Source: Vicinamibacterales bacterium
GTDB taxonomy: Bacteria; Acidobacteriota; Vicinamibacteria; Vicinamibacterales; UBA2999
DNA: 64,000 nt
Assembly: GCA_041394685.1 (NCBI GenBank)
Contig: JAWKHU010000034.1
Location: 150,827 to 214,826, forward strand
Direction of reading: 5' to 3'
Shown one piece after another: positions 7,016 through 48,412 of this stretch; position 1 is the first letter of the stretch; each line of letters opens with the position of its first letter. The notes beneath the pieces are model-generated. The model ran no database searches, was not told where the DNA came from, and saw only the letters and a list, made by a program, of their open reading frames with translations. The position numbers and the translations under genes were made by a program.

Positions 7016-7109
7016 CCATCTGCGCCATCTGCGCCATCCGCGGCCCCTGCGCTATCTGCGCCATCTGCGGCCCCTGCGTCATCTGCGGGGCCGTGATACC
7101 ATCTCTGCG
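7016..7109. repeat. 9-bp tandem microsatellite (CCATCTGCG-like, about 8 full units plus partial units) upstream of nuoA
   Basis: ccatctgcg ccatctgcg ccatccgcg gcccctgcg ctatctgcg ccatctgcg gcccctgcg tcatctgcg, read directly. Confidence 0.9.
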
Positions 7110-9228: not shown

Positions 9229-9235
9229 AGGATGG

Positions 9236-9338
9236 ACACCACGACGTCACGGACGTCGCGGAGGCCTGGCGGACGGGATGGGGCTGAATCCCCCCGTTGC
9301 CCGTCGTGCCCTTCGCGCTCCGTCGTGCCCTTCGTGGT
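9236..9338. repeat. Short inverted/direct repeat block of the CACGA(A/C)G(G) / CCCTTCGTG family between gmhA and nuoD
   Basis: 'caccacgacgtcacggacgtcgcggagg' is followed by 'cgtcgtgcccttcgcgctccgtcgtgcccttcgtgg'. Confidence 0.6.
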
Positions 9339-9353
9339 TTCCTGTGACGTCTG

Positions 9354-14365: not shown

Positions 14366-14512
14366 CGCAGATGTCGCAGACGACACCGATGTGGAGGACG
14401 TGTTGACAGCGCTGGCAGCCGTGGACTCCCGACTTCCGATCGCGACCCCTGCCGCACCTGCAGCGCAGGAGGCCGACGCCCGACTCTCGACTCACGACTC
14501 CCGGGGGACCCG

Positions 14513-16680: not shown

Positions 16681-18336
16681 GTGACCGGCCTCCCGATGCT
16701 CTCGCTCGCCATCCTCCTCCCCGTGCTCGGGGCCATCGTGCTGCTCTTCGTGAGCAACCGCGACGGCTCGAAGGACGGCCTCATCCGCACCATCACCTTC
16801 GGGGTGTCGCTGGTGACCTTTGCCGTCACCCGGGCCTCTGGGCCGGGTTCGACACCGCGCCGGCCGCCGAGTCGTTCCAGTTCGTCGAGCGCCACCCCTG
16901 GATTCCGACCTTCGGCATCGAGTACTACCTGGGCATCGACGGCCTCAGCCTGATGCTCATCGTGCTGACGGGCTTCCTGACGCCGATTGCGCTCCTGACG
17001 TCCTGGGAGAGCATCGAGAGCCGCGTGAAGGAGTTCTCCATCTTCATGCTGGTCCTCGAGGCCGCCATGATCGGCGTCTTCTGTTCGCTCGACCTCTTCC
17101 TCTTCTACGTCTTCTGGGACATCCTGCTCATCCCGATGTACTTCCTCATCGGGATCTGGGGCTACGACCAGCGCATCTACGCCGCGGTCAAGTTCATCCT
17201 CTACACGATGGCCGGCAGCGTGCTGATGCTGGTGGCCATCATCGGCCTCTCGTGGATGAACCACGCGGCCACGGGTGAATACAGCTTCGACCTGCTCAGG
17301 CTCTACGCGCTCGACATCCCGTTCAACACGCAGTACTGGTTCTTCCTCGCCTTTGCCATCGCCTTTGCGATCAAGGTGCCGCTGTTCCCGTTCCACACGT
17401 GGCTGCCCGATGCGCACGTGCAGGCGCCCACGCCGGGGTCCGTCATCCTGGCGGGCGTGCTGCTGAAGATGGGCGGCTACGGGCTCATCCGGTTCGCGTT
17501 CCCGCTCTTCCCTGAGGCGGGCGCCTACTTCGCCCCGCTCATCGCCGTCCTGTCGGTCATCGCCATCGTGTACGGCGCGCTGGTGGCGATGGTGCAGCCG
17601 GACATGAAGAAGCTGGTGGCCTACTCCTCGGTCAGCCACATGGGCTTCGTCGTGCTCGGCATCGCCTCGCTCAATCTCCAGGGCGTGCAGGGCGCCTCAT
17701 GCCCAGATGCTGGCGCACGGCGTCAGCACGGGCGGGCTCTTCGCGCTGGTGGGCATGATGTCCGACCGCCGCCACACGCGCCTCATCAGCGAGTACGGCG
17801 GCATCAAGAGCGTCATGCCGCGCCTGACGGCCGCGTTCCTCATCATCACGCTGTCCTCGGTGGGCCTGCCCGGCATGAACGGCTTCATCGGCGAGTTCCT
17901 CATCATGCTGGGTGCGTTCACGTGGAACCCCTGGTATGTCGTCGGCGCCGGGCTCGGCGTCATCCTCTCCGCGGTCTACATGCTCTGGATGGTGCAGCGC
18001 GTGTTCTACGGCCCCGTCACCAACGACCACAACGCCCACCTGCCGGACCTGTCGGTCCGCGAGTGGGCCATCATCGGCCCGCTGGCCGCCATGGCCATCG
18101 TGATGGGCGTCTTTCCCAACGTGTTCCTCAAGCCCATGGAGCCGGCCGTGGACCGCATCGTGCAGCGCGTGATCGCGCACCAGCCTGCCTCCGCACGCGC
18201 GAACGATGGCGTGCTACGGCAGGCAGGCCCTGACGCACGCGTGAACGATGGCGTGCTGCGGCAGGTAGGCCCGGACGCCCGCGCGAATGGCGTGCCACGG
18301 CAGGCCGAGACCCTGACGAAGGCGGGGGACAACTGA
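16681..18336 (+). CDS. nuoM: NADH-quinone oxidoreductase subunit M (frameshifts near 16832 and 17697)
   Basis: Three consecutive frames (16681.., 16953.., 17707..) together give a complete NuoM: '...[18 protein letters not shown]', '[33 protein letters not shown]' and '[13 protein letters not shown]'. Confidence 0.9.
18193..18309 (+). repeat. 42-bp in-frame tandem repeat (about 2.8 copies) in the nuoM 3' end
   Basis: It encodes '[14 protein letters not shown] / [14 protein letters not shown] / [11 protein letters not shown]'. Confidence 0.85.
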
Positions 18337-18338
18337 TC

Positions 18339-19777
18339 ATGTTCAGCAACTCCTTCGACGCGGTCATTCCCGTCATCTGCGTGACGCTGGCGGGGCTCGT
18401 GGTGATGCTCGCCGAATCCTTCCGGCGCAAGGACGAGCGCATGCCGCTCGGCGGCCTCGCCATCATCGGCCTGGTCGGGGCGGCCGCGGCCACCATCCTG
18501 CTCTGGAATCGCAACGCCACCAGCTTCGGTGTCGTCACCGCCGACAACTTCGCGCTCTTCGTCAACATGGTCATCATCGTGGTGGGCATTCTCACCGTGG
18601 TGGTGTCTTCCCAGACCGTCGAGCGCGACGGCCTGCCGGCCGGCGAGTACTACGCCACCCTCCTCTTCGCCATCGTCGGCATGATGCTGATGGCGCAGGC
18701 CACCGACCTGCTGCTGGTCTTCCTCGCGCTCGAGACGATGTCGATTGCGGTGTACGTCCTCACCGGACTCCGGCGTGACCAGTTGCAGAGCACCGAGGCG
18801 GCGTTCAAGTACTTCCTGCTCGGCGCCTTTGCCAGCTCGTTCTTCCTGTACGGCGTGGCCTTCATCTACGGCGTGACCGGCTCGACCGGCCTGGACCGCG
18901 TCGGCTCGGCGATTGCGGCCCAGTCGATGAGCGGCAACTTCATGATCCTGCTGGGCGTGGGCCTCATGCTGGTCGGCTTCGCCTTCAAGATCGCCGCGGT
19001 GCCGTTCCACATGTGGTCGCCCGACGCCTACGAGGGCGCGCCCACGGTCATCACCGGCTTCATGTCCACGGGCGTCAAGGCCGCGGCCATTGCGGCCTTC
19101 GCGCGCGTGTTCCTCTCGGCCCTCGAGCCGATGATCACCGACTGGGCGCCGGTGGTGTGGGCCATTGCCGCCGCCACGATGGTGGTGGGCACGGTGGTCG
19201 GTGTCGCGCAGACCAGCCTCAAGCGCATGCTGGCCTACTCGAGCATCGCGCACGGTGGCTACCTGCTGCTGGGCATCCTCGCCGGTAACGACGTCGGCAA
19301 GGCCGCCATCCTCTACTACCTGGCCGCCTACGCGCTGACCAACCTGGGTGCCTTCGGCATCATGGCGCTCCTCGGCTCGCGCGAGCGCGCCAACGACGAC
19401 CTGCGCGACTACGCCGGCCTCGCCAAGTCGCACCCGGCGCTGGCGGCGCTCATGACGTTCTTCCTGCTGTCGCTCGGCGGGTTCCCGCCGACCGCGGGCT
19501 TCATCGCCAAGTGGTACGTCTTCAGCGCGGCGGTGGGCGCCGGCTACTACGGTCTCGCCATCATCGGCGTGCTCTCGAGCGTTGTCTCGGTGTTCTTCTA
19601 CCTCCGCATCGTGGTGATGATGTACATGTCCGAGCGCGACGCCCGCCCGGTGCCAGGCCCGATCGCGGGCGTGGCCATGGCCGGCACGGCCGTGTCGCTC
19701 GCCGGCGTGCTCTACCTCGGCGTGCTCCCCGCACGTGCGTCGACTGGGCGCAGGCGTCCGTGTCGACGATCTTCTAG
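18339..19777 (+). CDS. nuoN: NADH-quinone oxidoreductase subunit N (frameshift near 19737; true stop TAG at 19775..19777)
   Basis: 'FKIAAVPFHMWSPDAYEGAPTVITGFMSTGVKAAA'. The natural C-terminus '...VDWAQASVSTIF*' lies in the frame of ORF 19511..19777. Confidence 0.9.
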
Positions 19778-19858
19778 TCACGAAGGACACGAAGGGGAAG
19801 CACGAAGGGCACGAAGGGAAGGCACGAAGAGCACGAAGGGGCACGGAGGCACGAAGAG
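19778..19858 (+). repeat. CACGAAGGG-type 9-nt microsatellite starting at the first base after the nuoN stop
   Basis: 'tcacgaaggacacgaaggggaagcacgaagggcacgaagggaaggcacgaagagcacgaaggggcacggaggcacgaagagg'. Confidence 0.9.
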
Positions 19859-19937
19859 GTGCCCGGGGGACGAGGCGGTCTGTGAGCAGACCCGATGCCG
19901 TGTCCCGCGGAAGCCCAGAGTCTTCCTCCTGCTGACG

Positions 19938-20119
19938 CGTTCTTCGTGCTCCTCGGGGTCTCCGCACTCTACGTGACGCCGTTCCCCATGCCTTCCGCGC
20001 TCTACGCGCTCTTCGTGCCCTCCGCGTTCTCCATGCCCTTCGTGCTCTCCGTGTTCTCTGTGTTCTCCGTGTCCTCCGTGTCCTTCGTGTTTTCCGTCCC
20101 CTTCGTGCCCTTCGTGCCT
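19938..20119 (+). repeat. Inverted-orientation (CCCTTCGTG-type) microsatellite array ending 2 nt before the symporter ATG
   Basis: '...ctcttcgtgccctccgcgttctccatgcccttcgtgctctccgtgttctctgtgttctccgtgtcctccgtgtccttcgtgttttccgtccccttcgtgcccttcgtgcc'. Confidence 0.9.
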
Positions 20120-20121
20120 CG

Positions 20122-21416
20122 ATGACGCTCACGATTCGGGTCCTGGCCGGGCTGGTCGCTGGCTTCCTGCTGGGCCTCGCGCTTGCGGGGCCGGCGGCTC
20201 CGGCGTCCACGCTCGTGGTCGGCATCCTGGCGCCAGTCGGCGAAATCTTCGTCAACCTCATTCGCATGACCGTGATTCCGCTCCTGGCCTCGATGCTGGT
20301 GGCCGGCATTGGCGGCATGCCGCGCGCGGGCGGGCTGGGGCGGACCGGGCTGCGCGGGCTGGCGATCTCGGTCGCGCTGCTGACGATGGCGGCGGCGGTG
20401 AGCGTGGTGGTGGCGCAGCCGGTGCTGGCGCGGCTCGACATCGATCCGTCGGCGGCGCAGGCGCTCCGCGCCCAGAGCGGCGTGACGGGTGCGGACGCTG
20501 CGGCGGCGGCCCCAACCCTCGGGAGCTGGCTCGTGGAACTGGTCCCGGTGAACGTGGTGCAGGCGGCCGCGGACGGAGCGGTGCTGCCCGTGATTCTGTT
20601 CTCGGTGCTGTTCGGGTGGTCGCTCAACCGGATCGAGCCTGGACGGCACGAGGCCGTGCTGCGGGTGGTGGAGGGCGTTGCCGAGACCATGCAGCGCCTC
20701 GTGGTCGGCGTCTGGCGCTGGCGCCGATCGGCGTCTTCGCGCTGGCGGTGCCTCTGGCCGCCCGCCTCGGCTGGCGGCTGCCGGCGCCGTGCTGGCCTAC
20801 GTCGGCCTCGTGGTGGTGCTCACCGTTATCGCGATCGCCGCGGTGCTCTACCCGCTCGGCGTGCTCGTCGGTCGCATGCGCCCGGCCGCCTTCGTCGCCT
20901 ACTGCGCGCCGGCGCGAGGCCATCGCCTTCGCCTCCCGGTCGTCGCTGGCCTCGCTGCCGGCCATGGTGGCCAGCGCCGAGCGCGCGGGCCTGCCGCCGA
21001 GCGCCTCACGCGTCGTGATGCCGTTCGCCATGGCGGTGTTCCACTTCGGCGCCGCCATAGCCCAGGCGGTCGGCGTGGTGTTCCTCGCACGCCTGTTCGG
21101 CGTCCAGCTGTCGCCGTCTCAACTCGCGTCCATCGTGGCGGCGGTGGTTCTCGCCTCGTATGCCGTGCCCGGCATTCCGGGCGGCAGCATCATCGGGATG
21201 GTGCCGGTGCTGATGGCGGCCGGCCTGCCGGTGGACGGCGTCGGCATCCTGCTGGCGGTGGACACCATCCCGGACATGTTCCGGACGACGGCGAACATCA
21301 CGGGGGCGATGACCCTGACGGCGATCCTGGGGCACGGAGAACACGGAGAACACGAAGGGCACGAAGGGCACGGAGGGCACGAAGGGCACGCAGGGCACGC
21401 AGGGCACGAAGGGTAG
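20122..21416 (+). CDS. Dicarboxylate/amino acid:cation symporter (DAACS/GltP-DctA family); frameshifts at about 20700-20920; His/Glu/Gly tail encoded by the microsatellite
   Basis: 'VGEIFVNLIRMTVIPLLASMLVAGI', 'SSLASLPAMVASAERAGLP', 'YAVPGIPGGSIIGM' and 'LAVDTIPDMFRTTANITGAMT'. The tail is 'GHGEHGEHEGHEGHGGHEGHAGHAGHEG'. Confidence 0.85.
21332..21413 (+). repeat. CACGAAGGG-type 9-nt microsatellite (7 GGG tracts spaced by 6 nt) forming the symporter 3' end
   Basis: 'gggcacgaagggcacggagggcacgaagggcacgcagggcacgcagggcacgaaggg'. Confidence 0.9.
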
Positions 21417-21432
21417 GAGGCTATCCTCACTT

Positions 21433-21497
21433 CCAAGCCCCAAGCCCCAAGCCCCAAGCCCCAAGCCCCAAGCCCCAAGCCCCAGGTCCCAGGTCCC
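21433..21497. repeat. 7-nt microsatellite CCAAGCC x7 followed by CCAGGTC x2, abutting the intI stop codon
   Basis: Read directly. The minus strand is (CTTGGGG)n. Confidence 0.9.
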
Positions 21498-22465
21498 TTA
21501 CAACCGATCTGCCGGGCTCCGCACCCCGAGGCCGCCGCGGCTCAGCACGTGGGTATAGATCATCGTCGTGCTGACGTCGGCGTGGCCCAGCAGTTCCTGA
21601 ACGGTGCGGATGTCGTATCCATCCTCGAGCAGGTGTGTGGCGAACGAATGGCGCAGCGTGTGACAGCTCGCACGCTTGGTGATGCCGCAGGCCCTTACGG
21701 CCGCGGTGACGGCGCGCTGGATGACGGTTTCGTGGAGATGGAAGCGGCTCGGCGGGCCCCAGCGCGGGTCCCGGCAGATGCGGGCAGCCGGGAAGACGAA
21801 TTGCCACGGCCACGACGAAGCGGCGTTGGGATACTTGGCGGTCAGCGCATCGGGAAGCACCACGCGCCCGAATCCTTGCGCGAGGTCGGCGTCGTGCAGA
21901 CGACGGGTCTCGTCGAGCTGTCGTCGCAGGGCCGTCACGACCGACGCGGGAAGCATCGTGACGCGGTCCTTGCGGCCCTTCCCCTGGCGCACGATGAGTT
22001 CCAGCCGCTCCAGGTCCACGTCCTTGACGCGCAACGACAGGCCTTCGAGTAGACGCAGGCCGCTGCCGTAGAGCAGCGATGCCACAGGTGCGAGACCCCC
22101 TCCAGGTGCTCGAGGAGCCGGCGGACCTCTGGCGGGTCAGCACGACGGGCAGGCGCGGGGGTGTGCGCACGCGCGTGAGTGCCGGCAGGTCTCCCAGTGG
22201 ACGGCCGAGGACGTGTTCGTAGAGGAACACGAGTGCGCACAGCGCCTGGTTCTGTGTGGACGCGCTGACCTGCCCCCGCACGGCCAGCGCGGACAGAAAG
22301 GCCGACACCTCGGCGCCACCGAGGCGGTCGGGGTGCTGCAGCCGGTGGAACACGACAAAGCGACGTGTCCAGTGCGCTGTAGGCCTCCTCGGTCCGGGGG
22401 CTGAAGTGCCGAACGCGACAGGCCCGGCGCACCCGGTCGAGCAGTCGTGGCCGTTCCCCCGACAT
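21498..22465 (-). CDS. intI: Integron integrase IntI (tyrosine recombinase); at least 2 frame breaks in the N-terminal half (about 22090-22380)
   Basis: ORF 21498..22085(-) has '[16 protein letters not shown]' and the IntI-specific insertion '[50 protein letters not shown]'. It also has '[40 protein letters not shown]...GVRSPADRL', close to the IntI1 pattern. The N-terminus is '[29 protein letters not shown]'. Confidence 0.92.
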
Positions 22466-22639
22466 CGCGGCCGGACCGCCCCATCCGCCTTCTTGTCGCC
22501 GTCATCCTGGTCCATGGCGAACCAGCGAGCCAGTTCCGTGCCAGCGCCGCTTTCAGCCGGCGCGGCCCTGCAGGAGCATCAGATGCCAAGAACGTTTCGG
22601 AATATGCCACCTGACCGTCTTCGGCCAACGCATCACTTG

Positions 22640-22822
22640 CAGAACCCGTTAGCCTGACAGGAGAGTCCGCGTTGACCCTGGCGCTGAACAGAACGGTCTC
22701 ATACGGGCGTCGAAGAGGTTTGCGGGAGTGTCCGCCCTTGAGGAAGAAGAAGGCTGACCGCCGATGCGGCGGGATCGGTTCTGGATGGGGTAGGCTACAG
22801 GCGGTCTAGTAATCTGTTAGCC
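22640..22822 (+). other. attI region. The predicted crossover core is GTTAGCC at 22816..22822; a second GTTAGCC at 22647..22653 may be an IntI-binding direct repeat.
   Basis: 'taatctGTTAGCCagacaaga' matches the 'GTTAGCCagaca' junctions seen after attC2 and attC6. The first cassette ATG is 10 nt downstream. Confidence 0.6.
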
Positions 22823-22831
22823 AGACAAGAC

Positions 22832-23176
22832 ATGGTGAAAGCTGAACTGAGACGAATTCACAGCCCAGACTTGTCGGAACCCGATCTGCCCCCCGATCCG
22901 ACAGATTGTGTGGTTCTGGTTCAGGCCCTCATCGGCCCGAAGGACGGCAGCGGCGAGGAGTCATTTGACTTTGAGGTCGTCGCACCATTGAGCGCCAGCA
23001 GTCCCGGTCGTGGTCGAGTGGTGGTTGAACGCTTCGACTGGCCCAGTGTCCGGACTCACATCACAGAACGCCTCGCTTCCGCGCAGGGCCACTCTTGGTC
23101 CGACGTGGCTCGGCAGCTCGACCAACACTGGTGTTGGGAGTTCGCGGACTACCGGGAGTTCGGAGCCAACGGTTGA
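22832..23176 (+). CDS. Cassette 1: Imm8-like immunity protein (114 aa)
   Basis: 'AELRRIHSPDLSEPDLPPDPTDCVVLVQALIGPKDGSGEESFDFEVV...WSDVARQLDQHWCWEFADY' matches my memory of the Imm8 (PF15586) pattern (HSPD..., IGP..G.EGEESFD..V, WEFEDY). Confidence 0.55.
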   Translation: MVKAELRRIHSPDLSEPDLPPDPTDCVVLVQALIGPKDGSGEESFDFEVVAPLSASSPGRGRVVVERFDWPSVRTHITERLASAQGHSWSDVARQLDQHWCWEFADYREFGANG

Positions 23177-23213
23177 TCTCGCTGTCCTGCCTAGCGAGCA
23201 TCCGGGCACAGCT

Positions 23214-23302
23214 GGCTAGCCAGCGCATGCAGCCGACGGCGGTCAGGCGCTGTGGCATCATGCGGGCATCCGACCGCCGCGGCTGATGCGCGGGCGTTAG
23301 GC
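23214..23302 (+). repeat. attC 1 (89 bp)
   Basis: R'' GGCTAGC ... 'cagcgcatgcagccgacggcgg' ... 'ccgccgcggctgatgcgcg' ... R' GTTAGGC. Confidence 0.85.
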
Positions 23303-23313
23303 AGACCCAATCA

Positions 23314-23739
23314 ATGAGCCCGTCGACGGCTGAAGAGCGGCTACGTGCTGGGTTGCGGCATTGTTCAGAGATGTCGAAGGCATTGTCTGAGCTTCAAGAG
23401 CGAGTCGACGATGCGTCGTCTCTTCGTCCGGCCATCCGCGCAGTTGGCGCCATCCTTGGTTGGTTCGATCTCGAGTTGTTTCGGCCCATCGAGCGTGAGC
23501 ATCCAGAACTCGTCGGGTGGTCGACTGCGGACCGCGACTGGTCGCCGGAGTCCGCGCCGGCCCCAACCCTGACGGACGCGTTCGATGCGTGTGAGCGGGC
23601 CGTGGCCAACAGCCTTGGTGTGGCGAAGTTCGTCGTAGGCGAGGCGGGCCTGTCTCTGCGGGCGCGTGCTGAACTCGAGCGCCTCGTTGCACAGTGCCAG
23701 AGTGCAGGCCGTGCTGCTCGTCGCAATGGGGCTGCCTAA
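23314..23739 (+). CDS. Cassette 2: hypothetical helical protein (141 aa)
   Basis: Intact ORF. Its stop TAA is supplied by the attC R'' core (GCCTAAC). Confidence 0.55.
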   Translation: MSPSTAEERLRAGLRHCSEMSKALSELQERVDDASSLRPAIRAVGAILGWFDLELFRPIEREHPELVGWSTADRDWSPESAPAPTLTDAFDACERAVANSLGVAKFVVGEAGLSLRARAELERLVAQCQSAGRAARRNGAA

Positions 23740-23820
23740 CCAGCGCATGCAGCCGGCGGCGGTCAGCACCGTGGCATCATTGGATATCGACGCGCCGCGG
23801 CTGATGCGCGGTCGTTAGCC
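23734..23820 (+). repeat. attC 2 (87 bp)
   Basis: R'' GCCTAAC ... R' GTTAGCC. The arms are nearly identical to attC1, attC4 and attC5. Confidence 0.9.
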
Positions 23821-23839
23821 AGACAGACTGAGACGCAGA

Positions 23840-24421
23840 ATGAATGTCCGCCAGGCACCAGCAGTGTCAATAGAGTCCGTTAGGGAAGTGGCGCGCATTC
23901 TGTGGCCCCGGTTCATCGAGTTCGACGGATTGATGTGGGTCGATCTACCCGGGTGTAGGCCGAGACGTGGTGCGGCGACACCGAACCCGACTACAGGCAT
24001 GGACCGAACCGGCATCGAAGCCTTCGCCAGCCATATCCATCTCTTGGATCTGTTTGCGCACGACCGACGCGTGTTTGACAGACGAACGCTGCTTTACGAC
24101 CGGAGCCATCGTCACTTCCGTACGGCTGAACAGTTGGGTCAGACGGTGGCGCAGACGTGGTGCGCGCGGCTTCGGAGTGACTATCCTGGCCAACACTTCC
24201 GCGTCTACTACACCCGCGACGACGATCCGGCCGTTCGTTTTCACCGCGTGTACGCTGGCGAGCCAGTGTGGATGGAGGATCCCACGCCTGCCCCATCGAC
24301 TCGAGTCGTGCGCGCCGTCTGGGATACGCATCGGCTGGCTAACCAGCGCTTGCAGCCGGCGGCGTCGAACAACCGTGCCACTCAGACAGGCAAGCCGCCG
24401 CGGCTGAAGCGCAGTCGTTAG
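23840..24421 (+). CDS. Cassette 3: hypothetical protein (193 aa as given; the last ~25 aa read through the attC)
   Basis: Intact ORF filling the cassette. No family recognised. Confidence 0.5.
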   Translation: MNVRQAPAVSIESVREVARILWPRFIEFDGLMWVDLPGCRPRRGAATPNPTTGMDRTGIEAFASHIHLLDLFAHDRRVFDRRTLLYDRSHRHFRTAEQLGQTVAQTWCARLRSDYPGQHFRVYYTRDDDPAVRFHRVYAGEPVWMEDPTPAPSTRVVRAVWDTHRLANQRLQPAASNNRATQTGKPPRLKRSR

Positions 24422-24423
24422 CC
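24337..24423 (+). repeat. attC 3 (87 bp)
   Basis: R'' GGCTAAC ... R' GTTAGCC. Confidence 0.85.
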
Positions 24424-24435
24424 GGACAAACCGGA

Positions 24436-25167
24436 ATGCCGAACAAGCGCCTCGAACGTTGGTACCTCGAGCAGCTGAAGAGTGAGCTTCCGGACTTTCC
24501 GACCGGCGAGGTGGAACCCGGAGAGTCGCCAGACTTCGTGGTCCGAGAACCCGAAGGCTCGGTCGGAATTGAGATCACCGTCTTTCACCGGGCACCTGCC
24601 CACGGAGAACGGCCCCACCAAGAGCTTCAGAGTCTCAAAGATGGCGTCGTCGACCTCGCGCGCCGAATGCACCACGAGAGCGGTGGGCCGGCACTATACG
24701 TGACGGTCTTCTTCCACGAGCCCATCGCCTTCAACAAGCGGAGCGCTCAGTCAGTAGCCGCTGCAATCGCAGGGGCGGTATCACAGACAGCCGTACCATC
24801 ATCAATCGGCGATGGCTCTCGCAGCGTTGCGTGGGACCATCTGCCGGATGGCGTTGTGGCGATCACGATCTATGCCAGTGTAGACGGCGCCGATCGGCTC
24901 TGGTCCGCCGACGCCGGCGGCTGGGTGGCCCCAGTCACGGCGAACGAGATCGACGTGGTGCTGCGCGGAAAGCAGTCAATGTTGACGATCGCCAGGACGA
25001 AGTGCCGACGTGTCTGGCTCGTGGTCGTAAACGACGTCTTTTCGAGAGCAGCACCCGTGGAGCTCAGCGACGAAGCGAGGCATCATCTCTACCCGTACGG
25101 GTTCAATCGGGTGTTCTGGCTCGATGCGCATGCTCCCGCGATCACGGAACTTAAGCGAGCCGGCTAA
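24436..25167 (+). CDS. Cassette 4: hypothetical protein (243 aa) with a possible PD-(D/E)xK nuclease-like N-terminal core
   Basis: 'GESPDFVVREPEGSVGIEITVF' (D ... E-x-T in beta-strand context). The stop TAA lies in the attC R'' core. Confidence 0.5.
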   Translation: MPNKRLERWYLEQLKSELPDFPTGEVEPGESPDFVVREPEGSVGIEITVFHRAPAHGERPHQELQSLKDGVVDLARRMHHESGGPALYVTVFFHEPIAFNKRSAQSVAAAIAGAVSQTAVPSSIGDGSRSVAWDHLPDGVVAITIYASVDGADRLWSADAGGWVAPVTANEIDVVLRGKQSMLTIARTKCRRVWLVVVNDVFSRAAPVELSDEARHHLYPYGFNRVFWLDAHAPAITELKRAG

Positions 25168-25250
25168 CCAGCGGTTGCAGCCGACGGCGGTTGGGCACTG
25201 TGGCATCATGCGGGGCAGCAACCGCCGCGGCTGAACCGCGGTCGTTAGAC
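25162..25250 (+). repeat. attC 4 (89 bp)
   Basis: R'' GGCTAAC ... R' GTTAGAC. Confidence 0.9.
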
Positions 25251-25257
25251 GGACTCC

Positions 25258-25828
25258 ATGTCACGCGATCGCGAACACGTCGTGTGTTGCCTGTGTGGCT
25301 CTGCGTGTGAGATGCGTCGGCCGTCGTGCTCAGCGTATCAAGCAGGCCCGCGGACGAAGGCTCCCAGCATCTCTGGGTGCATTCAACGTGTCTGAGAAAC
25401 CACTTGGCAATCGACGCACCCCTCCTTTCGGAACTGAAAGACAATCACGACGTCTCACCACTTGGGCCGGGGCTGATCGAGCGTCTCGCGGCGTGCGTGC
25501 GCGCCTTGTCCGAGGCCTCTGAGGCCTGTCGACAAGCCCAAGAGCGTCCACGATACGAGGCACGCCTTGCCGGCGCTGCTCGAATGTTCGAGGCGCTCCG
25601 GCGCGACTCGACGTGTGCGAGCCTGATTCCGCTACTCGAGACAGAACAGCGAGCACTTGGTTGGGGTGCTTCAGTGAAGCTGCAGGCGCGAACGTCGAAC
25701 GGGCGTTCAGCGACTTCGCTGCGGCGGCGAGGCGACTCGCCGTCTCACCAGCGCATGCAGCCGACGGCGGTCGGGCGTTGTGGCATCATGCGGGCAGTCG
25801 ACCGCCGCGGCTGATGCGCGGTCGTTAG
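25258..25828 (+). CDS. Cassette 5: hypothetical protein, possibly with an N-terminal Cys/His zinc-finger; needs frame corrections (about 25320 and about 25660)
   Basis: ATG 25258 gives 'MSRDREHVVCCLCGSACEMRRPS', joining ORF 25326.. '...SQHLWVHSTCLRNHL' (C-x2-C ... H-x2-C). The tail is uncertain. Confidence 0.35.
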
Positions 25829-25830
25829 CC
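25742..25830 (+). repeat. attC 5 (89 bp; degenerate R'')
   Basis: R'' GTCTCAC ... 'cagcgcatgcagccgacggcgg' ... R' GTTAGCC. Confidence 0.8.
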
Positions 25831-25885
25831 AGAGCTGAGTCAGGAATTCAATCCTTTCGGCTGGCGGGTCGACGGTTCCGAACTC

Positions 25886-26233
25886 TTGGCCCGGCCCGCG
25901 GTGCGTGCCAGTCAGACCCTCGACGACCTCGCGGTCCTTGTGCTGCTCGCGATCTGCAGTTGCATCTGCGTCCCGGCCTCGCTCCGGATCGTGGCGGACG
26001 CTACGGCTCCCGGCGACGACCGGGGCGTCTCGTGCATGTGGGGACGTGGCCCGGTCAGTTGGGGCGCGTTCGGCGGCGCGCCTTGGGCGCGGCGGCCGTG
26101 GAGCCGGCGTGAGCGGTCCGGGCCGGCCATCACCCCGGTGCGCCTCGCAGACGGCGCGCCATGGTCCGGGCTCATCGACCGGGGGTGCGTGTTCCGGACA
26201 GCCGGTCGGCGATCGCCGCGTCCGGCTGGCTAA
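25886..26233 (+). CDS. Cassette 6: uncertain ORF (115 aa)
   Basis: This is the only frame whose stop is the TAA of the attC R'' core, as in cassettes 2, 4, 8 and 11b. The N-terminal part 'TLDDLAVLVLLAICSCICV' is TM-like, but the rest is compositionally poor and frame errors are likely. Confidence 0.25.
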   Translation: MARPAVRASQTLDDLAVLVLLAICSCICVPASLRIVADATAPGDDRGVSCMWGRGPVSWGAFGGAPWARRPWSRRERSGPAITPVRLADGAPWSGLIDRGCVFRTAGRRSPRPAG

Positions 26234-26382
26234 CCAGACGCTGCAGCTGACCATCGGCACCGCCATCATCAAGCCCGGTGTCATCATCGTGGTTCCGCGG
26301 GCAGTCGGCGGGCGTATTATCGGAGGCGCTTGCTCCCAGCGTGCTCTTGGTGCCGCTGGCAGCTGAGCGCTGGTCGTTAGCC
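26228..26382 (+). repeat. attC 6 (155 bp, long variable loop)
   Basis: R'' GGCTAAC 'cagacgctgcagctg' ... 'cagctgagcgctggtc' R' GTTAGCC. Confidence 0.8.
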
Positions 26383-26422
26383 AGACAGAGAATCGGCGTG
26401 GCGCCAACAACGAGGTCGTGAG

Positions 26423-26953
26423 TTGAAGCACCGGGAGTGGCACGCGGAGGTGAAGCGCCTATTGAAGATGTCGGCCGAGAAGCCTGAGGCCGCGTCGCGC
26501 CGCTTGCGCCGATTGGCTGGTGCCGTAGAGCGTGAAATCAAGCACGGTCTGCATGACTGGCACGTTACGCAGACTCTCCACCTGGCAAGTCTCGCCGAAG
26601 CCGCAATGGGAAATCACACAGCCGCGGCCGTCACCCTGGCGCGGGTGGCCGAGCACCAGAAGAGCTCCTTGGACTATGAGGTCAGGGCGTACGTGTCGGC
26701 CTGTGCTGCGGCGGCCCTTGAGTACGCGAAGGCTGGCGACATGGAAAAGGCTGTGACCATGGTGCGGGAAGCTAGGCCATGGGGAAGGCGACTTCAACCG
26801 CCCGACCATCTCTTGAAGTCTGCATCGAGACTGATCCGAGGCTGGCATAGTGGCGACCAAGGGCTGGCCAACCAGCGCGTGAAGCCGACGGCGGCCGGGC
26901 AGCGGGACAGGGCCCGGGCAGCGAGGCGCCGCGGCTTACGCGCAAGTCGTTAG
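26423..26953 (+). CDS. Cassette 7: hypothetical all-helical (TPR-like) protein; TTG start preceded by GAGG
   Basis: ORF 26423..26953. Its C-terminal ~28 aa read through the attC. Confidence 0.45.
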   Translation: MKHREWHAEVKRLLKMSAEKPEAASRRLRRLAGAVEREIKHGLHDWHVTQTLHLASLAEAAMGNHTAAAVTLARVAEHQKSSLDYEVRAYVSACAAAALEYAKAGDMEKAVTMVREARPWGRRLQPPDHLLKSASRLIRGWHSGDQGLANQRVKPTAAGQRDRARAARRRGLRASR

Positions 26954-26955
26954 GC
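26866..26955 (+). repeat. attC 7 (90 bp)
   Basis: R'' GGCCAAC ... R' GTTAGGC. Confidence 0.8.
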
Positions 26956-26978
26956 AGACTCATTAGCGCGAGCGCATC

Positions 26979-27311
26979 ATGGATCAGCCGGACATCCGGG
27001 ATGCCCGTGCCAAAGCGGCCAAGATCGCAGCGGCGGTCTTGGCAAGGCAGCTCAGTCCAGTACTGGGCGCCGTCGACTTGAACAGGCTGCGCTTTTCGGT
27101 GGACGTGCCGACCGACGACCCAGACTTTGAAACGTTCATCCTTATCGACTCGGAGTGCGATGGCCTGCCAATCGGGTCGGTTCGGCAGTACTGGTCTCCC
27201 GAGGCGCTTACCCGAAAAGAACCTGAGGTCGCGCATGCCGAGCGTTGGGCAATGGACGCTGGCGCCGAAGCCTTCAGGAATGTGCTGGAGCGCTTTGGGC
27301 CCGCTGCCTAA
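26979..27311 (+). CDS. Cassette 8: hypothetical protein (110 aa)
   Basis: Intact ORF with its stop TAA in the attC R'' core. Confidence 0.5.
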   Translation: MDQPDIRDARAKAAKIAAAVLARQLSPVLGAVDLNRLRFSVDVPTDDPDFETFILIDSECDGLPIGSVRQYWSPEALTRKEPEVAHAERWAMDAGAEAFRNVLERFGPAA

Positions 27312-27412
27312 CAAGCCGCTGCACCTGACGGCAACGGGGCCCGCTCGCGCGTGCCCCTGCGCTCGGTGGTGTCGTGACTCGCGCTGCCGCAGGTGAGCGG
27401 CAGCCGTTAGGC
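27306..27412 (+). repeat. attC 8 (107 bp)
   Basis: R'' GCCTAAC 'aagccgctgcacctgacgg' ... 'ccgcaggtgagcggcagcc' R' GTTAGGC. Confidence 0.85.
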
Positions 27413-27439
27413 CGGATCAAGATTAGTCGGGTCAATCGA

Positions 27440-27796
27440 ATGAAGTGGATAGAGCGGGTGTTCGGACGCCGCAGGCGCATCGTTGATATGACGGCCGAAG
27501 AAGTTGCCGCGACCATCGAGAACTTTATCGAAGGCCGTGGCGGACCTTGGGAATGGGACGACTTTCTGTCCTTCCAGATCACGGACCCGCAACTCGAGTC
27601 TATTCGGGAACGCTGCAACGGACTGTCGGAAGAGTGTCCCCCTGGTATGGGTGGCGGCTATTGTGGGCTCGAAGGCGTTGACGTCATGCGCGTGTTCGTT
27701 CGGGAACTCAGGGAACGTGCGGCCAAACAAACCGCTGTACCTGACGGCACCGGGTCGCGCTCGGTGCAATCCGTGCCGCGCGCATGCCGCAGGTGA
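27440..27796 (+). CDS. Cassette 9: hypothetical small protein
   Basis: ATG 27440 gives 'MKWIERVF...EEVAATIENFIEGRGGPWEWDDFLSFQITDPQLESIRERC...'. The tail reads into the attC. Confidence 0.5.
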   Translation: MKWIERVFGRRRRIVDMTAEEVAATIENFIEGRGGPWEWDDFLSFQITDPQLESIRERCNGLSEECPPGMGGGYCGLEGVDVMRVFVRELRERAAKQTAVPDGTGSRSVQSVPRACRR

Positions 27797-27813
27797 GCGG
27801 CACTCCGTTGGGC
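27722..27813 (+). repeat. attC 9 (92 bp; same arm subtype as attC 8)
   Basis: R'' GCCAAAC 'aaaccgctgtacctgacgg' ... 'ccgcaggtgagcggcactcc' R' GTTGGGC. Confidence 0.85.
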
Positions 27814-27831
27814 TGCGAACTGGAGCAAGCC

Positions 27832-28362
27832 ATGATGAAGATCCCTAGGATGCGAATACCGGTGTTCGTCTCGGCTCCCAGTCCGGACAATCTCAGTCCC
27901 TCTCAAGAGCAGAGCGCGGCCATCATCCAGAAGCTTGTAACGCGGTACAAACTGGAATGGCGCGCGTTGGGACGAAGCGACTATCCCAATAGCCTTCCTC
28001 TGAAGGAGGTCCTGAGGATGGTCAAGCATTGTTCGGGAGGGATCATTCTTGGCTTCGAGCAGTTTCGAGCGCCCAACGGGAGTTCAAACCGGGCAGCCCG
28101 AACGCAAAGACTGCAACGTCCGCAGTGTCCTTCCCGACTCCGTGGAATCAGCTCGAAGCAGGCATCCTTTTCAGTAGCGGTTTGCCGATGGTGATCTTCA
28201 GAGAGGCCGGTATCGCAGGTTGGGTGTTTGATGTGGGGACGTCAGAGGTGTTCATCCACCAGATGCCGAACTCTGCGATGGCACCTCAAGCCTTGGACGA
28301 TCTGGATTCCCGTCTTCCAGAACTGGGTGGCTCGTGTCCGGACTCACTACTATGGCGAGTGA
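27832..28362 (+). CDS. Cassette 10 gene A: TIR-like / nucleoside 2-deoxyribosyltransferase-like protein (about 175 aa after two frame corrections, near 28085 and 28305)
   Basis: 'MMKIPRMRIPVFVSAPSPDNLSPSQ...VKHCSGGIILGFEQF' is followed, after a shift, by 'FPTPWNQLEAGILFSSGLPMVIFREAG' (N-x3-E-x-G motif). A further shift gives '...WIPVFQNWVARVRTHYYGE*'. Confidence 0.45.
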
Positions 28363-28651
28363 CTACTGTCCCCAACCGCTTTCCACCGACCACATCCAGT
28401 TGGATGACGACCTGTTGAAGCTTGTCGAGCGACTGGCAGAACACGCGCACGACATCTGGGCACTGCAGAGAATCAACGATGGATGGCGCTTCGGGCCGGA
28501 GAGGTGCGACAACACGAAGCGTCACCCCTGTTTTGGTCCCGCACTCGAAACTGCCCGAATCAGAGAAGTCATGCGATCGCAATGCGGTTGTTGGCACGAT
28601 CCGGGCAGCACTCGCTTTGGGTTTTGTAGGTACGAAGTGTTGCTCCGATGA
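28352..28651 (+). CDS. Cassette 10 gene B: RyR-domain protein (frameshift near 28530; 3' end uncertain, 28651 or 28727)
   Basis: ATG 28352 overlaps the gene A stop (ATGGCGAGTGA). 'LVERLAEHAHDIWALQRINDGWRFGPERCDNTKRHPC' is followed, in the shifted frame, by 'LVPHSKLPESEKSCDRNAVVGTIRAALALGF'. Together these match the RyR (PF02026) consensus as I remember it. Confidence 0.6.
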   Translation: MASDYCPQPLSTDHIQLDDDLLKLVERLAEHAHDIWALQRINDGWRFGPERCDNTKRHPCFGPALETARIREVMRSQCGCWHDPGSTRFGFCRYEVLLR

Positions 28652-28653
28652 AG

Positions 28654-28718
28654 CAGCCCAACAGGGCGCTGCAGCCGACGGCTGCGCGGCGCGGCTGAGC
28701 GCTGACGTCGGTCGTTCG
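28654..28718 (+). repeat. attC 10 (65 bp, short)
   Basis: R'' GCCCAAC 'agggcgctgcagccgacgg' ... 'gcggctgagcgc...gtcggtc' R' GTTCGAC. Confidence 0.75.
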
Positions 28719-28769
28719 ACGGACTAATCGACCACACTGAAGATCAGCTAAGGCAACTGAGGAACTGAC

Positions 28770-29245
28770 GTGAGGCCTCGCTATCTTTGCCAGGACTGCC
28801 TGTTCCTGGGTGCCCCGGCGAAGCGTCTGGTGGGGTCTCCTGCCCTGGAATTGGTCCTCTGGCTCGTCTGGTGGTTCCGGGCGCGGCGTATGCGTGGTGG
28901 CGTCGTCGGGGAGTGATCTTGCTGTGCGACAGGTGTGGCGGTCCGCGCGTCGTGCCGGAGGTCAGCCCCGAGCAGAGATCGACGATTGCCGCGCACCCCA
29001 GACTGCCAGACGAAGTAGTGGGGAAGGCCACGGTATTCTGGCGCGTCTTCTGGGCCATGCCGGTGGCGAGCGGCGTTGGTGTCGTAGCGTTGTTCGTTCT
29101 GTCGGCGTTGGTTCCAACGGTTCGGGCCCAGCCCTGGTTCGGCTGGCTCGTTTACGGTGTCGCGGCGCCAATCGTTGGGCACGGGTTGTGGTTGGCGGCG
29201 CACTTGGTGTCCTCGGTGGTTAGAAGGCTCCGTGCGCGCCTCTGA
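28770..29245 (+). CDS. Cassette 11 gene a: membrane protein with a split zinc-ribbon (CxxC - TM - CxxC) and two further TM helices; GTG start; frameshift near 28870
   Basis: 'VRPRYLCQDCLFLGAPAKRLVGSPALELVLWLVWW' is followed, after a shift, by 'VPGAAYAWWRRRGVILLCDRCGGPRVVP...', then the hydrophobic 'VFWAMPVASGVGVVALFVLSALV' and 'FGWLVYGVAAPIVGHGLWLAAHLV'. Confidence 0.5.
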
Positions 29246-29400
29246 TGGGGCCGTCGAATCCGGCGTTGGAACCGATGTCCTTGGCCGCCGGCAGGTGCTC
29301 GCGCAGCGGTAGAATCGTGACGCCGCGCGGCGCGGCTCAACGCCAACCGGAGGCGGACATGTGAGCGAGACTGCAACTGGCTGAGTTCCAGCGCTCTGGC

Positions 29401-29775
29401 ATGACGCGTGATGGCGAGCAGATGTGGAAGCGCATAGTCGCAGCTGGGATCAGCGTGGCCGTCAGCACTGGGTTCTTGGTCTTGGGTGGGGCGGTTGCCA
29501 TGGACCCGGAATCGTGGTTCGTGCTGACCTTCGGCGTCGCACTACTGGCGTACTCATGTGGTTCTCTCGCAGTCCTGGGAGCGGCGTGGTATGCACCGGG
29601 CGGGTGGAGTCGGTGGGCAGCCTACCTAGCCTCGGGAGTCTCGGTGCTCTGGTCTCTCGGCTCATTCGATCACGGATTCATGAGCGGGCTAGAGGTTGTC
29701 TCGGCACTCAGATGCTCCGGTGCCTCCGCCCTGAACTGGGCATCCATACGATGGATCGAGCGAACCACCGCCTAA
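29401..29775 (+). CDS. Cassette 11 gene b: small 4-TM membrane protein (124 aa)
   Basis: Four hydrophobic segments. The stop TAA lies in the attC R'' core. Confidence 0.55.
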   Translation: MTRDGEQMWKRIVAAGISVAVSTGFLVLGGAVAMDPESWFVLTFGVALLAYSCGSLAVLGAAWYAPGGWSRWAAYLASGVSVLWSLGSFDHGFMSGLEVVSALRCSGASALNWASIRWIERTTA

Positions 29776-29844
29776 CAAGCGATTGCAGCCGACGGAGGCC
29801 CGGTAGATCCTGAGCGCGCCGCGGCTGAACCGCGGTCGTTGGAC
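29770..29844 (+). repeat. attC 11 (75 bp)
   Basis: R'' GCCTAAC 'aagcgattgcagccgacgg' ... 'ccgcggctgaaccgcggtc' R' GTTGGAC. Confidence 0.85.
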
Positions 29845-29852
29845 GGCTTGCG

Positions 29853-30315
29853 ATGACCGAGTGTGAGTTCGCGAAACGAATCGATGGGCGCTTTCCGTAC
29901 GAAGACCTGGAGCAACGGGCTCTCCTCGCCAGGTTGAGCTGCGCCATTTCACCCAATGCGGCCTTCATGCTTATTCACGAACTCGCCAGGCCTGGTCGTG
30001 GAGTGGTGGCGCCCCTGCAGAATCAATCGCAGTCTTGGACGCTGTAGCCGCGAGACTCGAACATCCACTAGCGATGTCTGTCTTCGCGCCTTGCGAGAAA
30101 AATGATCCAGGGGAGAGACCGCGACGGTGGACGAAGCGCTCGACCTGATGGGCGCCGTAGCATCCTATCGCGGACAGCATGCCGCGCTGGCTATCGCGGC
30201 TATGTCCTGCGATGATCCGGATGGTCGCGCAACGGACGCGGACGAACGCATCTCGCGCAAGCTGGGACGCCGCCTAGCACCCGCTTGCAGGCGACGGCGC
30301 GCGGTGGCATCCTGA
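29853..30315 (+). CDS. Cassette 12: hypothetical protein, split over three frames
   Basis: 'MTECEFAKRIDGRFPYEDLEQRALLARLSCAISPNAAFMLIHELARPG', then '...AESIAVLDAVAARLEHPLAMSVFAPCEKNDPGE', then '...VDEALDLMGAVASYRGQHAALAIAAMSCDDPDGRATDADERISRKLG'. Confidence 0.35.
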
Positions 30316-30343
30316 GCGCAGCGGCTGAACCGCGTCCTTTGGC
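30272..30343 (+). repeat. attC 12 (72 bp; mutated R' core)
   Basis: R'' GCCTAGC 'acccgcttgcaggcgacgg' ... 'gcggctgaaccgcgtc' then CTTTGGC in place of GTTGGAC. Confidence 0.6.
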
Positions 30344-30359
30344 GGACCGATCACGCGCC

Positions 30360-30877
30360 ATGGCATCATCCGACCCGTTGCAGATCGATCGCGCGCGGCT
30401 ACACAGCCGCGATCGCCATACTCCTGGGTCTCTTCGCGTGCGGCGCCCCTCCGGATGCGGAATACGAGTATCTGATCGCCCAGTTCGGTCGTGCCGAGTC
30501 CGTGCGGCCCACGTCACACGGTCCGGCGCGGGGCGAATGGAGGGTCGACGTCGCCGACCTGTTCTGGAACAAACCCGATAACCCTGATGTTGGTCGTCAG
30601 GGTGGCAGGACAGGTAGGACGCGAGGTCACGGTCCGCTACTCAGACGAAGCGGAGCCGCGCCAGTTGTCGGAACGCATCGAAGGCAGGACGCCAATCGAG
30701 GTCCGTTCGGGCCAATCGATTCTCTACGTCTATTCGAAGGACGGGCGGTCGGGAACCCACCACCTCCTGGCGTATGATCTGGAGAGGACGGTGCGCACGA
30801 ATCGGCAGGTCGAACCATCAGCCGTCTCGCTGAAGAATCCAGAAGACGGCGGGAGAGTTCAGCGGAGTAGCCAATGA
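30360..30877 (+). CDS. Cassette 13 gene a: predicted lipoprotein (frameshifts near 30400 and 30585)
   Basis: ATG 30360, then, after a shift, 'TAAIAILLGLFACGAPPDAEYEYLIAQFGRAESV...' (lipobox LFAC). ORF 30491..30877 supplies the tail '...VTVRYSDEAEPRQLSERIEGRTPIEVRSGQSILYVYSKDG'. Confidence 0.45.
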
Positions 30878-31212: not shown

Positions 31213-31244
31213 TGGGGCGAGCGGCTGCAGCGCGGTCGTTGGAA
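31153..31244 (+). repeat. attC 13 (92 bp, divergent), the last recognisable attC
   Basis: The left arm 'GGTGAACgacgaccgcgggtgggccg' pairs with the right arm 'cggctgcagcgcggtcGTTGGAA'. Confidence 0.6.
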
Positions 31245-31261
31245 GGCACGTCGAACATCAG

Positions 31262-36870: not shown

Positions 36871-36888
36871 GCGCCCGGTCCCGTATTT

Positions 36889-36968: not shown

Positions 36969-37008
36969 AATTCCGCGTTCCGCCTTCCCCCTTGATACCG
37001 TGGTCCGC

Positions 37009-38136: not shown

Positions 38137-38140
38137 ACGC

Positions 38141-48349: not shown

Positions 48350-48412
48350 AAGGTAACAGGCGCAAGGCACAAGGCAAAAGGCACAAGGCAAAAAAGCAAG
48401 TCGCGAAGACAA
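48350..48412. repeat. 7-nt microsatellite (AAGGCAN units) immediately after the purH stop
   Basis: 'acaggcgcaaggcacaaggcaaaaggcacaaggcaaaaaagcaag'. Confidence 0.85.

Follow-up and report, generated by a model that had tools for sequence, protein, structure and literature searches.

A positional orientation rule for 7- to 9-nucleotide tandem repeats at gene borders in a Vicinamibacterales genome

Results

Tandem arrays between nuoN and intI belong to a genome-wide, oriented repeat population

Positions 19778-21497 of the contig stretch analyzed here (the window; 64,000 nucleotides, positions 150,827 to 214,826 of contig JAWKHU010000034.1) of the Vicinamibacterales draft genome GCA_041394685.1 run from the 3' end of nuoN, through a GltP/DctA-type symporter gene, to the 3' end of a gene for an integron integrase (intI), and carry several arrays of 7- to 9-nucleotide tandem repeats. 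We found that these arrays are local members of a genome-wide repeat population and that a single positional rule fits their orientation in all contexts: the strand that reads away from the nearest gene is the purine/G-rich one. The reading that we favor, with a probability of about 0.58, is that they are long simple-sequence repeats born by slippage, whose place and orientation are filtered by selection. An earlier note on the same DNA had described such repeats as genome-specific, strictly bound to gene 3' ends and G-rich in the sense strand, and had proposed that they act, several of them as G-quadruplexes (G4), in termination, 3'-end stabilization or insulation. The observation is confirmed, and its interpretation is partly supported.

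Tandem Repeats Finder (TRF) recovered every array listed in that note, and direct reading of the DNA agreed. About eight CACGAAGGG-type nonamers on the plus strand (19779-19856) start 1 to 2 nt past the nuoN stop codon TAG (19775-19777); this array is purine/G-rich in the nuoN sense strand and lacks a canonical G3+N1-7 motif. The C terminus of NuoN reads ...DWAQASVSTIF, as it does in 19 relatives, and this TAG is therefore the true end of nuoN. An inverted copy of the CACGAAGGG unit (CCCTTCGTG/CTCCGTGTT), called by TRF with some 14 units at 19981-20118 (plus strand), ends 3 nt before the symporter ATG at 20122; it is C/T-rich when read in the sense of that gene, and its CTCCGTGTT units at 20020-20097 have the 19779-19856 array as their partner. 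The nuoN-symporter spacer with these two opposed arrays (19770..20125, plus strand) folds as a single long hairpin.

At the other end of the symporter gene, (CACGRAGGG)9 (21330-21413, plus strand) forms an in-frame His/Glu/Gly tail of the open reading frame (ORF), which translates the array as ILGHGEHGEHEGHEGHGGHEGHAGHAGHEG and stops at TAG 21414-21416. Sixteen nucleotides beyond this stop begins (CCAAGCC)7.4 (21433-21484), which reads as (CTTGGGG)n on the minus strand, followed by (CCCAGGT)2.4 (21481-21497, minus strand); the CCCAGGT/CCAAGCC arrays abut the minus-strand stop TAA (21498-21500) of intI. The latter gene is frameshifted and was identified by a match to the TIGR02249 profile (292 bits). 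The order of elements obeys the orientation rule throughout, from the nuoN stop through the purine-rich and then the pyrimidine-rich array to the symporter start, and again at the symporter end, where the purine-rich array is followed by (CCAAGCC)n, which is G-rich for intI. The placement of the arrays relative to stops was as previously described once assembly frameshifts had been corrected, and translation showed that arrays form the last part of the symporter and heptose kinase ORFs.

Arrays are enriched at gene 3' ends

The genome is a 6.26-Mb draft of 150 contigs with 70.4% G+C and 75% marker completeness, and it carries systematic indel errors. Frameshifts interrupt nuoN, purH, the symporter gene, intI, hldE and both rho copies (C70 and C75), and within the window frame switches lie at about 19745 and at 20700-20900, 22100, 48283, 3660-6740, 37570-39060, 43850-45130 and 48550-49550. 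Such switches are very numerous, and annotation of this genome by ORFs is unreliable. A plain ORF caller recognized only 76% of the genome as coding, owing to the frameshifts; we replaced it with a trained codon model and a 7-state frame-switching Viterbi procedure with arrays masked, which assigned 91%.

A whole-genome TRF census (period of 7 to 9 nt, at least 3.5 copies) returned 667 arrays of 108 canonical units, totaling 39.6 kb or 0.6% of the genome. Median copy numbers were 5.7 to 6.9, with a maximum of 46. Among arrays of at least 45 bp, periods of 7 (197 arrays), 9 (155) and 8 (49) dominated all others, well in excess of chance. The largest family is AATTCAG, with 105 arrays; AAGCCCC (45) and AAGGGCACG (36) are the two large families to which the units of the earlier note belong. 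By the coding model, 609 of the 667 arrays are extragenic and 58 apparently intragenic, and 332 arrays lie in co-directional, 199 in convergent and 65 in divergent spacers. About 6% of all junctions bear an array, the proportion being 13.2% of 1052 convergent, 4.8% of 1058 divergent and 5.3% of 2772 tandem junctions. The 3'-end enrichment that had been suspected was thus borne out, with an odds ratio of 3.0 for convergent over divergent junctions (p 1e-11) and a sharp peak at zero in the distance from stop codon to array edge (10 nt or less on 197 of 793 stop-facing sides). The claim of a strict association with stops did not hold: the array edge lies within 10 nt of a stop in only 183 of 609 extragenic arrays here and in 20 of 34 in a congener. 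In that congener, for which 400 kb of a 4-contig assembly were scanned with plain ORF calls, 40 arrays were found (the same density), none of the 34 extragenic ones lay within 10 nt of a start, and arrays occupied 11 of 59 convergent and 3 of 58 divergent junctions.

In these properties the arrays resemble long simple sequence repeats, that is, repeats with 5- to 11-nt units, and the short tandemly repeated repetitive (STRR) type: units stand head to tail beyond chance length, they occupy many dispersed, mostly noncoding loci, and unit, copy number and presence differ at orthologous junctions of congeners. A comparison of copy numbers, proposed in the earlier note as a way to detect phase variation, showed that they do differ between congeners; the placement is not that of contingency loci, which occupy promoters or the 5' coding part of surface or variable genes and switch expression as copies are gained or lost; here it is gene 3' ends and the borders between housekeeping genes (nuo, purH and hldE) that carry the arrays.

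The purine-rich strand points outward from the nearest gene

Of the arrays next to stops, 195 have the G-rich strand in sense and 62 in antisense. Co-directional spacers, taken together, show no preference with respect to the direction of transcription (128:130), and next to starts, in divergent spacers, it is the C-rich strand that is sense (38:16). Since the sense strand is C-rich near gene starts, the rule is positional rather than one of sense-strand G4, and the "G-rich in sense" of the earlier note, which holds next to stops and fails near starts, is one half of it. Going outward from the nearest gene, one reads a G/purine-rich strand in 81-85% of convergent and 71-83% of divergent cases, and in tandem spacers in 63-64% of stop-proximal and 79-82% of start-proximal cases. 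In other words, the G-rich strand has the nearest ORF on its 5' side, however that ORF is oriented; arrays are also rare between divergent ORFs. Polarity was very strong in some families (AAGGGCACG, 27:2; AAGGCAG, 28:4; AGATGCCGC, 11:1) and recurred in the congener (23:7) and in a genome from another family of the order (7:1).

An inverted partner with the same unit was present within 350 nt of 177 of 596 arrays (control, 13%; pairs counted from both arms). As the purine strand points away from the nearest gene, opposed arrays form hairpins with the purine arm first, and the purine-rich arm was indeed the 5' arm in 151 paired arrays versus 24, a count that is independent of gene calls.

Three sources of this polarity were rejected. 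A general intergenic skew does not account for it, since nonrepeat DNA after stops and before starts has a GC skew of about 0. Neither does a general arm bias of hairpins or terminators: in 339 non-array hairpins the excess of 5' arms rich in purines (56%, p 0.08) or in G (54%, p 0.16) was not significant, and the canonical terminators, 14 in all, are too few for this comparison. Polar growth by repeat addition to 3' ends at a break was rejected on the degree of unit decay (1.28 versus 1.32 mismatches per unit); array ends are more degenerate than the middle, and there is no gradient along the array. Together, these results show that the orientation rule is array-specific, independent of G4 potential and reproducible in other genomes.

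G-quadruplex potential does not organize placement or orientation

A canonical motif of four G3+ tracts with N1-7 loops occurs in 175 of the 667 arrays (26%), leaving 492 without one, and 190 of the 758 canonical G4 motifs of the genome fall in arrays. Within the window only 21351-21413 and 21433-21484 carry it, the two arrays for which it had been proposed. The former has the motif on the plus strand with seven GGG tracts and reaches a G4Hunter maximum of 1.12, below the usual thresholds and the highest value of any nonamer array; the latter has it on the minus strand and scores -2.44. The 21433-21484 array is thereby a strong candidate for G4 formation in the sense strand of intI.

Next to stops, non-G4 arrays were as polar (125:39 G-rich in sense) as G4-capable ones (66:26), and the best G4 units were the least polar (GGGGCTT, 19:16; GGGGCGT, 13:9; GGGGCATT, 6:6). 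For this reason G4 formation is not the organizing principle: the potential is real for some arrays, yet it does not organize placement or orientation. Copy-number histograms were broad, also for G4-motif arrays, with no preference for four units above the 3.5-copy cutoff, which hides shorter runs. A G3+ tract in every unit, the criterion of Rehm et al. (2015), is not general here, and the largest families AATTCAG, AGATGGCGC and AAGGCAG cannot form G4.

Single arrays turn over rapidly among relatives

Directly after the nuoN stop, a tandem array is present in about 13 of 19 relatives, which are not independent of one another; the units differ, and all are purine-rich in sense. They include CACGAAGGG remnants in two congeners and GGTGCTGCACGAGG in one and, in other families, GGCTAAGG with an inverted partner in one relative and NAACTGA in another. 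At the hldE-purH junction, five congeners (G001, G006, G007, G017 and G018) have a CACGAAGRR array after the hldE stop, and between this array and the purH stop lies either (CCCCAAG)n or an inverted copy of the array; G010 has a short AAGGCAR run, five congeners have nothing, and one has a canonical bidirectional terminator hairpin. At orthologous 3' ends of this genome and a congener, arrays were shared in 2 of 11 cases against a baseline of 11 of 81, a small sample; a first attempt at this comparison with 80-amino-acid tails gave too few orthologues. Single arrays are dispensable and turn over fast, and the arrays behave as slippage or unequal-exchange microsatellites.

No shared flanks of the arrays were found, and the genome, 75% complete by markers, held no match to the Y1 transposase family (PF01797); mobility of the miniature inverted-repeat transposable element (MITE) type or the REP-associated tyrosine transposase (RAYT) type was rejected on both grounds.

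The units are not specific to this genome, contrary to what had been supposed, since congeners, other families and many phyla carry them. Runs of (CACGRAGGG)3 or longer occur in at least 109 records from more than 100 species of many phyla. Vicinamibacteria, Gemmatimonadales, Chloroflexi, Planctomycetes, Verrucomicrobia, Gamma- and Betaproteobacteria, many Streptomyces and one Methanocellaceae archaeon are among the matches listed. We looked at the context of 80 loci from other phyla with a crude rule based on ORFs and G+C at third codon positions (GC3), which is noisy and supports only the statement that the unit is not genome-specific. By this rule, actinobacterial copies lie mostly inside long ORFs, while at about 15 other loci an ORF ends 5 to 45 nt upstream of the G-rich strand. 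Because the Streptomyces copies are mostly inside long ORFs, the recurrence of the nonamer is partly a coding phenomenon.

As a separate observation, in nine Streptomyces or other actinobacterial records (L083, L091, L097, L098, L112, L118, L146, L152 and L157) the nonamer lies inside long high-GC3 ORFs. It appears as a coding repeat in actinobacteria and as an intergenic one in Acidobacteriota, Planctomycetes and Chloroflexi.

Paired arrays fold into long hairpins without U-tracts

The nuoN-symporter spacer (about 350 nt) folds from stop to start with -186.1 kcal/mol (z -9.1; 0 of 100 shuffles as good), and the nuoC-nuoD spacer with -60.6 kcal/mol (z -2.4). Of the features of an intrinsic terminator, a G+C-rich hairpin directly after the gene is present only where arrays are paired (30% of arrays). 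The hairpins at 20118 and 9338 have no T-run behind them, and a consensus terminator scan found no terminator at the arrays. Perfect-stem hairpins with a T-tract in intergenic DNA number only 14 across the 6.26 Mb, which makes canonical intrinsic terminators a rarity in this genome; it does have Rho. Over the whole genome, purines are not in excess in the 15 nt ahead of predicted starts. Canonical terminators and Shine-Dalgarno (SD) sites may be little used in this lineage. A role of the arrays as terminators or stabilizers is unproven. Arrays inside the nuo operon, their absence at orthologous sites of congeners and their lack of general conservation weaken termination, 3'-end stabilization or insulation as an obligatory function.

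Other arrays and neighboring features of the window

On the minus strand, (CACGAAGGG)6 (57394-57448) lies at the end of the heptose-7-phosphate kinase gene (hldE), which translates it as a C-terminal SHEVHEGHGGHEGHEEHGGRNG; congener proteins end in ...ELRQRFPA. The array stands in place of the last six or so codons, and the ORF consequently ends 9 nt beyond it. AAGGCAC/AAGGCAA heptamers (48350..48412, plus strand; TRF, 48350-48393) begin about 10 nt past purH, whose true stop is TGA 48339-48341, and are purine-rich in sense. The TTCTGCC/TGCCTTGAGCCTTT array at 36887-36987 (plus strand), 16 nt past the stop of a RibD_C (DHFR-like) gene, has a C/T-rich sense strand and is an exception both to "G-rich in sense" and to the orientation rule. 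The array (CCATCTGCG)8 (7016..7109, plus strand; TRF, 7016-7087) is not at any gene 3' end: it lies in the divergent spacer between a minus-strand glycosyltransferase gene and nuoA.

Two spacers inside the nuo operon repeat the purine-rich-then-pyrimidine-rich order of the nuoN spacer. Between nuoC and nuoD (9229..9353, plus strand; TRF, 9243-9262), the spacer has CACGRMG-like units after the stop and CGTGCCCTT units before the start, and it folds into a single hairpin. Between nuoK and nuoL (14366..14502, plus strand; TRF, 14481-14500), arrays stand at both gene borders, with CGCAGATGT/CGCAGACGA units after the stop and (CGACTCN)3 before nuoL.

Across the whole genome, 52 ORFs read into arrays at their 3' ends and only gain C-terminal tails by doing so; the array-encoded tails may be translated as natural His-rich C-termini. 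Tails from the CACGAAGGG family read as His-rich (HEG/HGG)n or as (TKG/TEG)n, with 21330-21416 and 57383-57450 as examples.

Several further observations concern the surroundings. A 42-nt unit repeated three times (18192-18318; 81% matches) at the end of a nuoM-like ORF (PF00361), just before the nuoN start, stands outside all 7- to 9-nt families. The intI gene occupies 21498-22515 on the minus strand, and on its upstream side lie about 9 kb (22500-31400) of lower G+C (60-64%) that show no coding signal under the host codon model, yet contain many small plus-strand ORFs; this stretch is possibly a cassette array of an integron. The purH and heptose kinase genes of congeners are convergent, stop to stop; here they are separated by about 9 kb with plus-strand genes (48400-57390), a difference that suggests insertion or rearrangement at a junction bearing arrays. 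No known RNA family scored above threshold in the window.

Discussion

Selection on slippage products and its alternatives

If slippage made these repeats and selection filtered them, place and orientation would be set by selection on the transcript and not by the process that makes the repeats. The DNA adjoining stop codons would be the least constrained, so that arrays persist there. One orientation would be costly, candidate costs being C-rich RNA straight after a stop and purine-rich, SD-like or G4-prone RNA before a start. The molecular outcome would be structured, REP-like RNA at gene borders that may stabilize or insulate some transcripts. Several points weigh against this account. Slippage alone leaves unexplained why one unit recurs at 36 to 105 separate loci, and why the same units occur in Geobacter metallireducens, as far as its published consensus shows, and in more than 100 species; the units may have some way of spreading, or may be selected for their sequence, for instance by protein binding. 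Occupancy after nuoN (about 13 of 19) is far above the baseline of about 14%, at a locus that was chosen because it bears an array. Finally, the gene ends used here rest on our own coding model of an indel-rich assembly.

It is possible, although we would not bet on it, that polarity is a general selected property of such repeats in Acidobacteriota, Xanthomonas and cyanobacteria, a G4-independent, transcript-level device of terminator-poor lineages. That device could give Rho access to incoming transcripts or shield the 3' ends of outgoing ones with a structure, and the recurrence of units across phyla would then reflect function and not chance.

We are similarly tentative about the arrays being functional transcript-border elements. 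Paired arrays would be long hairpin terminators or 3'-end stabilizers, the C/T-rich strand of single arrays would load Rho onto transcripts heading into the nearest gene, and placement and polarity would be selected for and not merely tolerated. C/T-rich RNA on entry into the nearest gene would cover all four contexts, and the rule is weakest where incoming transcription is least expected (63% at tandem 3' ends versus 79-85% elsewhere). The enrichment at convergent junctions, the scarcity of canonical terminators beside a Rho factor and the giant stop-to-start hairpins fit as well, as do the hldE-purH junction, where some congeners have an array pair and another a canonical bidirectional terminator, and the nuoN 3' end, which holds arrays of varied units in many relatives. 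However, arrays also lie within the nuo operon, only about 6% of junctions have them, 70% have no inverted partner and the hairpins lack a U-tract behind them. Polarity is lowest in the most C-rich units (AAGCCCC and ACGCCCC), arrays are seldom shared at orthologous sites (2/11 versus 11/81), and the purine-first order of a convergent pair would delay rather than hasten Rho loading.

An unlikely explanation, drawn by analogy from proposals made for the Geobacter metallireducens and Beggiatoaceae repeats, is that the units would be multivalent sites for an abundant DNA- or RNA-binding protein. It would suit the dominance of a few unit families, the recurrence of (CACGRAGGG)n in many phyla and the presence after nuoN, in one relative, of NAACTGA, the unit of PMC4679880. 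It would also suit the TCTCCGTGY and MTYCTGA-like CTGAATT units, which the description of the G. metallireducens sites places in opposite-strand pairs (PMC2700814). Against it, 108 different units obey the same placement rules, units differ at orthologous sites, the Streptomyces nonamer is mostly inside long ORFs, and no candidate protein was found.

We consider it very improbable that sense-strand G4, in RNA or DNA, cause termination, stabilization or insulation at 3' ends. The two motif-bearing arrays of 19778-21497, the sense bias of G4-motif arrays next to stops, the quarter of genomic G4 motifs (190/758) within arrays and the formation of G4 by similar heptamers in vitro (PMC4692102) would be expected of it; yet 492 of 667 arrays, including the largest family AATTCAG, have no motif, non-G4 arrays are equally polar, and GGGGCTT, GGGGCGT and GGGGCATT have no polarity. 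The lack of a four-unit preference, nonamer G4Hunter values of at most 1.12 and a G-rich strand that is antisense near starts also speak against it.

Mis-assembled or error-generated arrays, which many gene frameshifts and 75% marker completeness might suggest, have a negligible probability and are refuted as a general explanation, exact copy numbers apart: the question is settled because independent assemblies of other species show the same unit at the same junctions, and a 4-contig congener has equal array density; public genomes of many phyla have such arrays too.

Significance

Even as merely tolerated microsatellites, the arrays would serve as fast strain-typing markers for a soil lineage that has received little study. 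Their positions are those at which draft assemblies break or slip, and they are a warning for annotation, with false C-terminal tails in 52 ORFs such as the His-rich symporter and heptose kinase ends. If the orientation rule reflects selection on transcripts, it would offer an entry to gene-border marking in high-GC bacteria without canonical terminators, and the 35-year-old question of what STRR-like repeats do gains a concrete prediction, an effect of array orientation.

Comparison with known repeat systems

Repetitive extragenic palindromic (REP) elements, with the related bacterial interspersed mosaic elements (BIMEs) and REPINs, are 20- to 40-nt imperfect palindromes of enterobacteria and pseudomonads that are spread by RAYT (Y1) transposases. 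They often lie just after stops and between convergent genes, also within operons, and their mRNA hairpins stabilize upstream mRNA. The arrays described here share the extragenic position after stops and in convergent spacers, the hairpins and the occurrence within operons, but they consist of nonpalindromic 7- to 9-mers in tandem, with no shared flanks and no RAYT or other Y1 transposase match in the genome; they are not REPs or REPINs.

Cyanobacterial heptamers of the STRR type were reportedly described by Mazel et al. in 1990. To our knowledge this lineage is not in the surveys of STRRs and long simple sequence repeats, and a literature search returned no paper on repeats of this kind in Vicinamibacteria. 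Long simple sequence repeats, with units of 5 to 11 nt, were surveyed by Mrazek et al. (2007), as summarized in PMC4679880. According to that summary, they are like the present arrays in having head-to-tail units of about 7 nt at many loci, an intergenic bias and a scattered phylogeny; the abutment on stop codons and the purine-first hairpin rule are quantified here.

In their section on paired "global regulator binding sites" of classes 2 and 3 in Geobacter metallireducens, Aklujkar et al. (2009) describe three to five tandem units of TCTCCGTS[Y] or MTYCTGA, paired on opposite strands (PMC2700814). The pairs are intergenic, including operon spacers such as that of proBA, and that section proposes them, without a test, as IHF/HU sites (PMC2700814). 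Units found here match this published consensus (CTCCGTGTT at 20020-20097; CTGAATT, 105 arrays), a match that places them with classes 2 and 3 and may reflect homology or convergence. The Geobacter sites as presented there differ in their far fewer loci (8 to 24 pairs), short arrays and lack of orientation statistics.

The TAACTGA heptamers of marine Beggiatoaceae, Cyanobacteria and Bacteroidetes (MacGregor, 2015; PMC4679880) are likewise intergenic, with a strong placement and orientation rule and no evident mobile element, and NAACTGA stands after nuoN in one relative. They lie a few nucleotides upstream of starts in forward orientation, whereas the arrays here abut stops; one of ours (19981-20118) nevertheless ends 3 nt before the symporter ATG.

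The closest parallel is that of Rehm et al. (2015), who described GGGAATC and GGGGA(C/T)T heptamers in hundreds of intergenic arrays of Xanthomonas and Nostoc (PMC4692102). Those repeats are rare between divergent ORFs, and the nearest ORF is 5' of the G-rich strand whatever its orientation, with arrays within 50 bp of a stop on the coding strand or upstream of a start on the noncoding strand. Close relatives differ in the length and sequence of these arrays, heptamers of a similar kind form G4 in vitro, and the function was given as unknown (PMC4692102). The intergenic arrays, the rule of placement and orientation and the variation between relatives are alike in the two systems. Here, in contrast, the units, 7, 8 or 9 nt long, fall into some 108 types, of which most lack G-tracts; four units are not preferred, polarity is strongest in non-G4 units, and enrichment is at convergent and not at "aligned" junctions. 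The rule of placement and orientation that we found is thus already published for Xanthomonas and Nostoc (PMC4692102).

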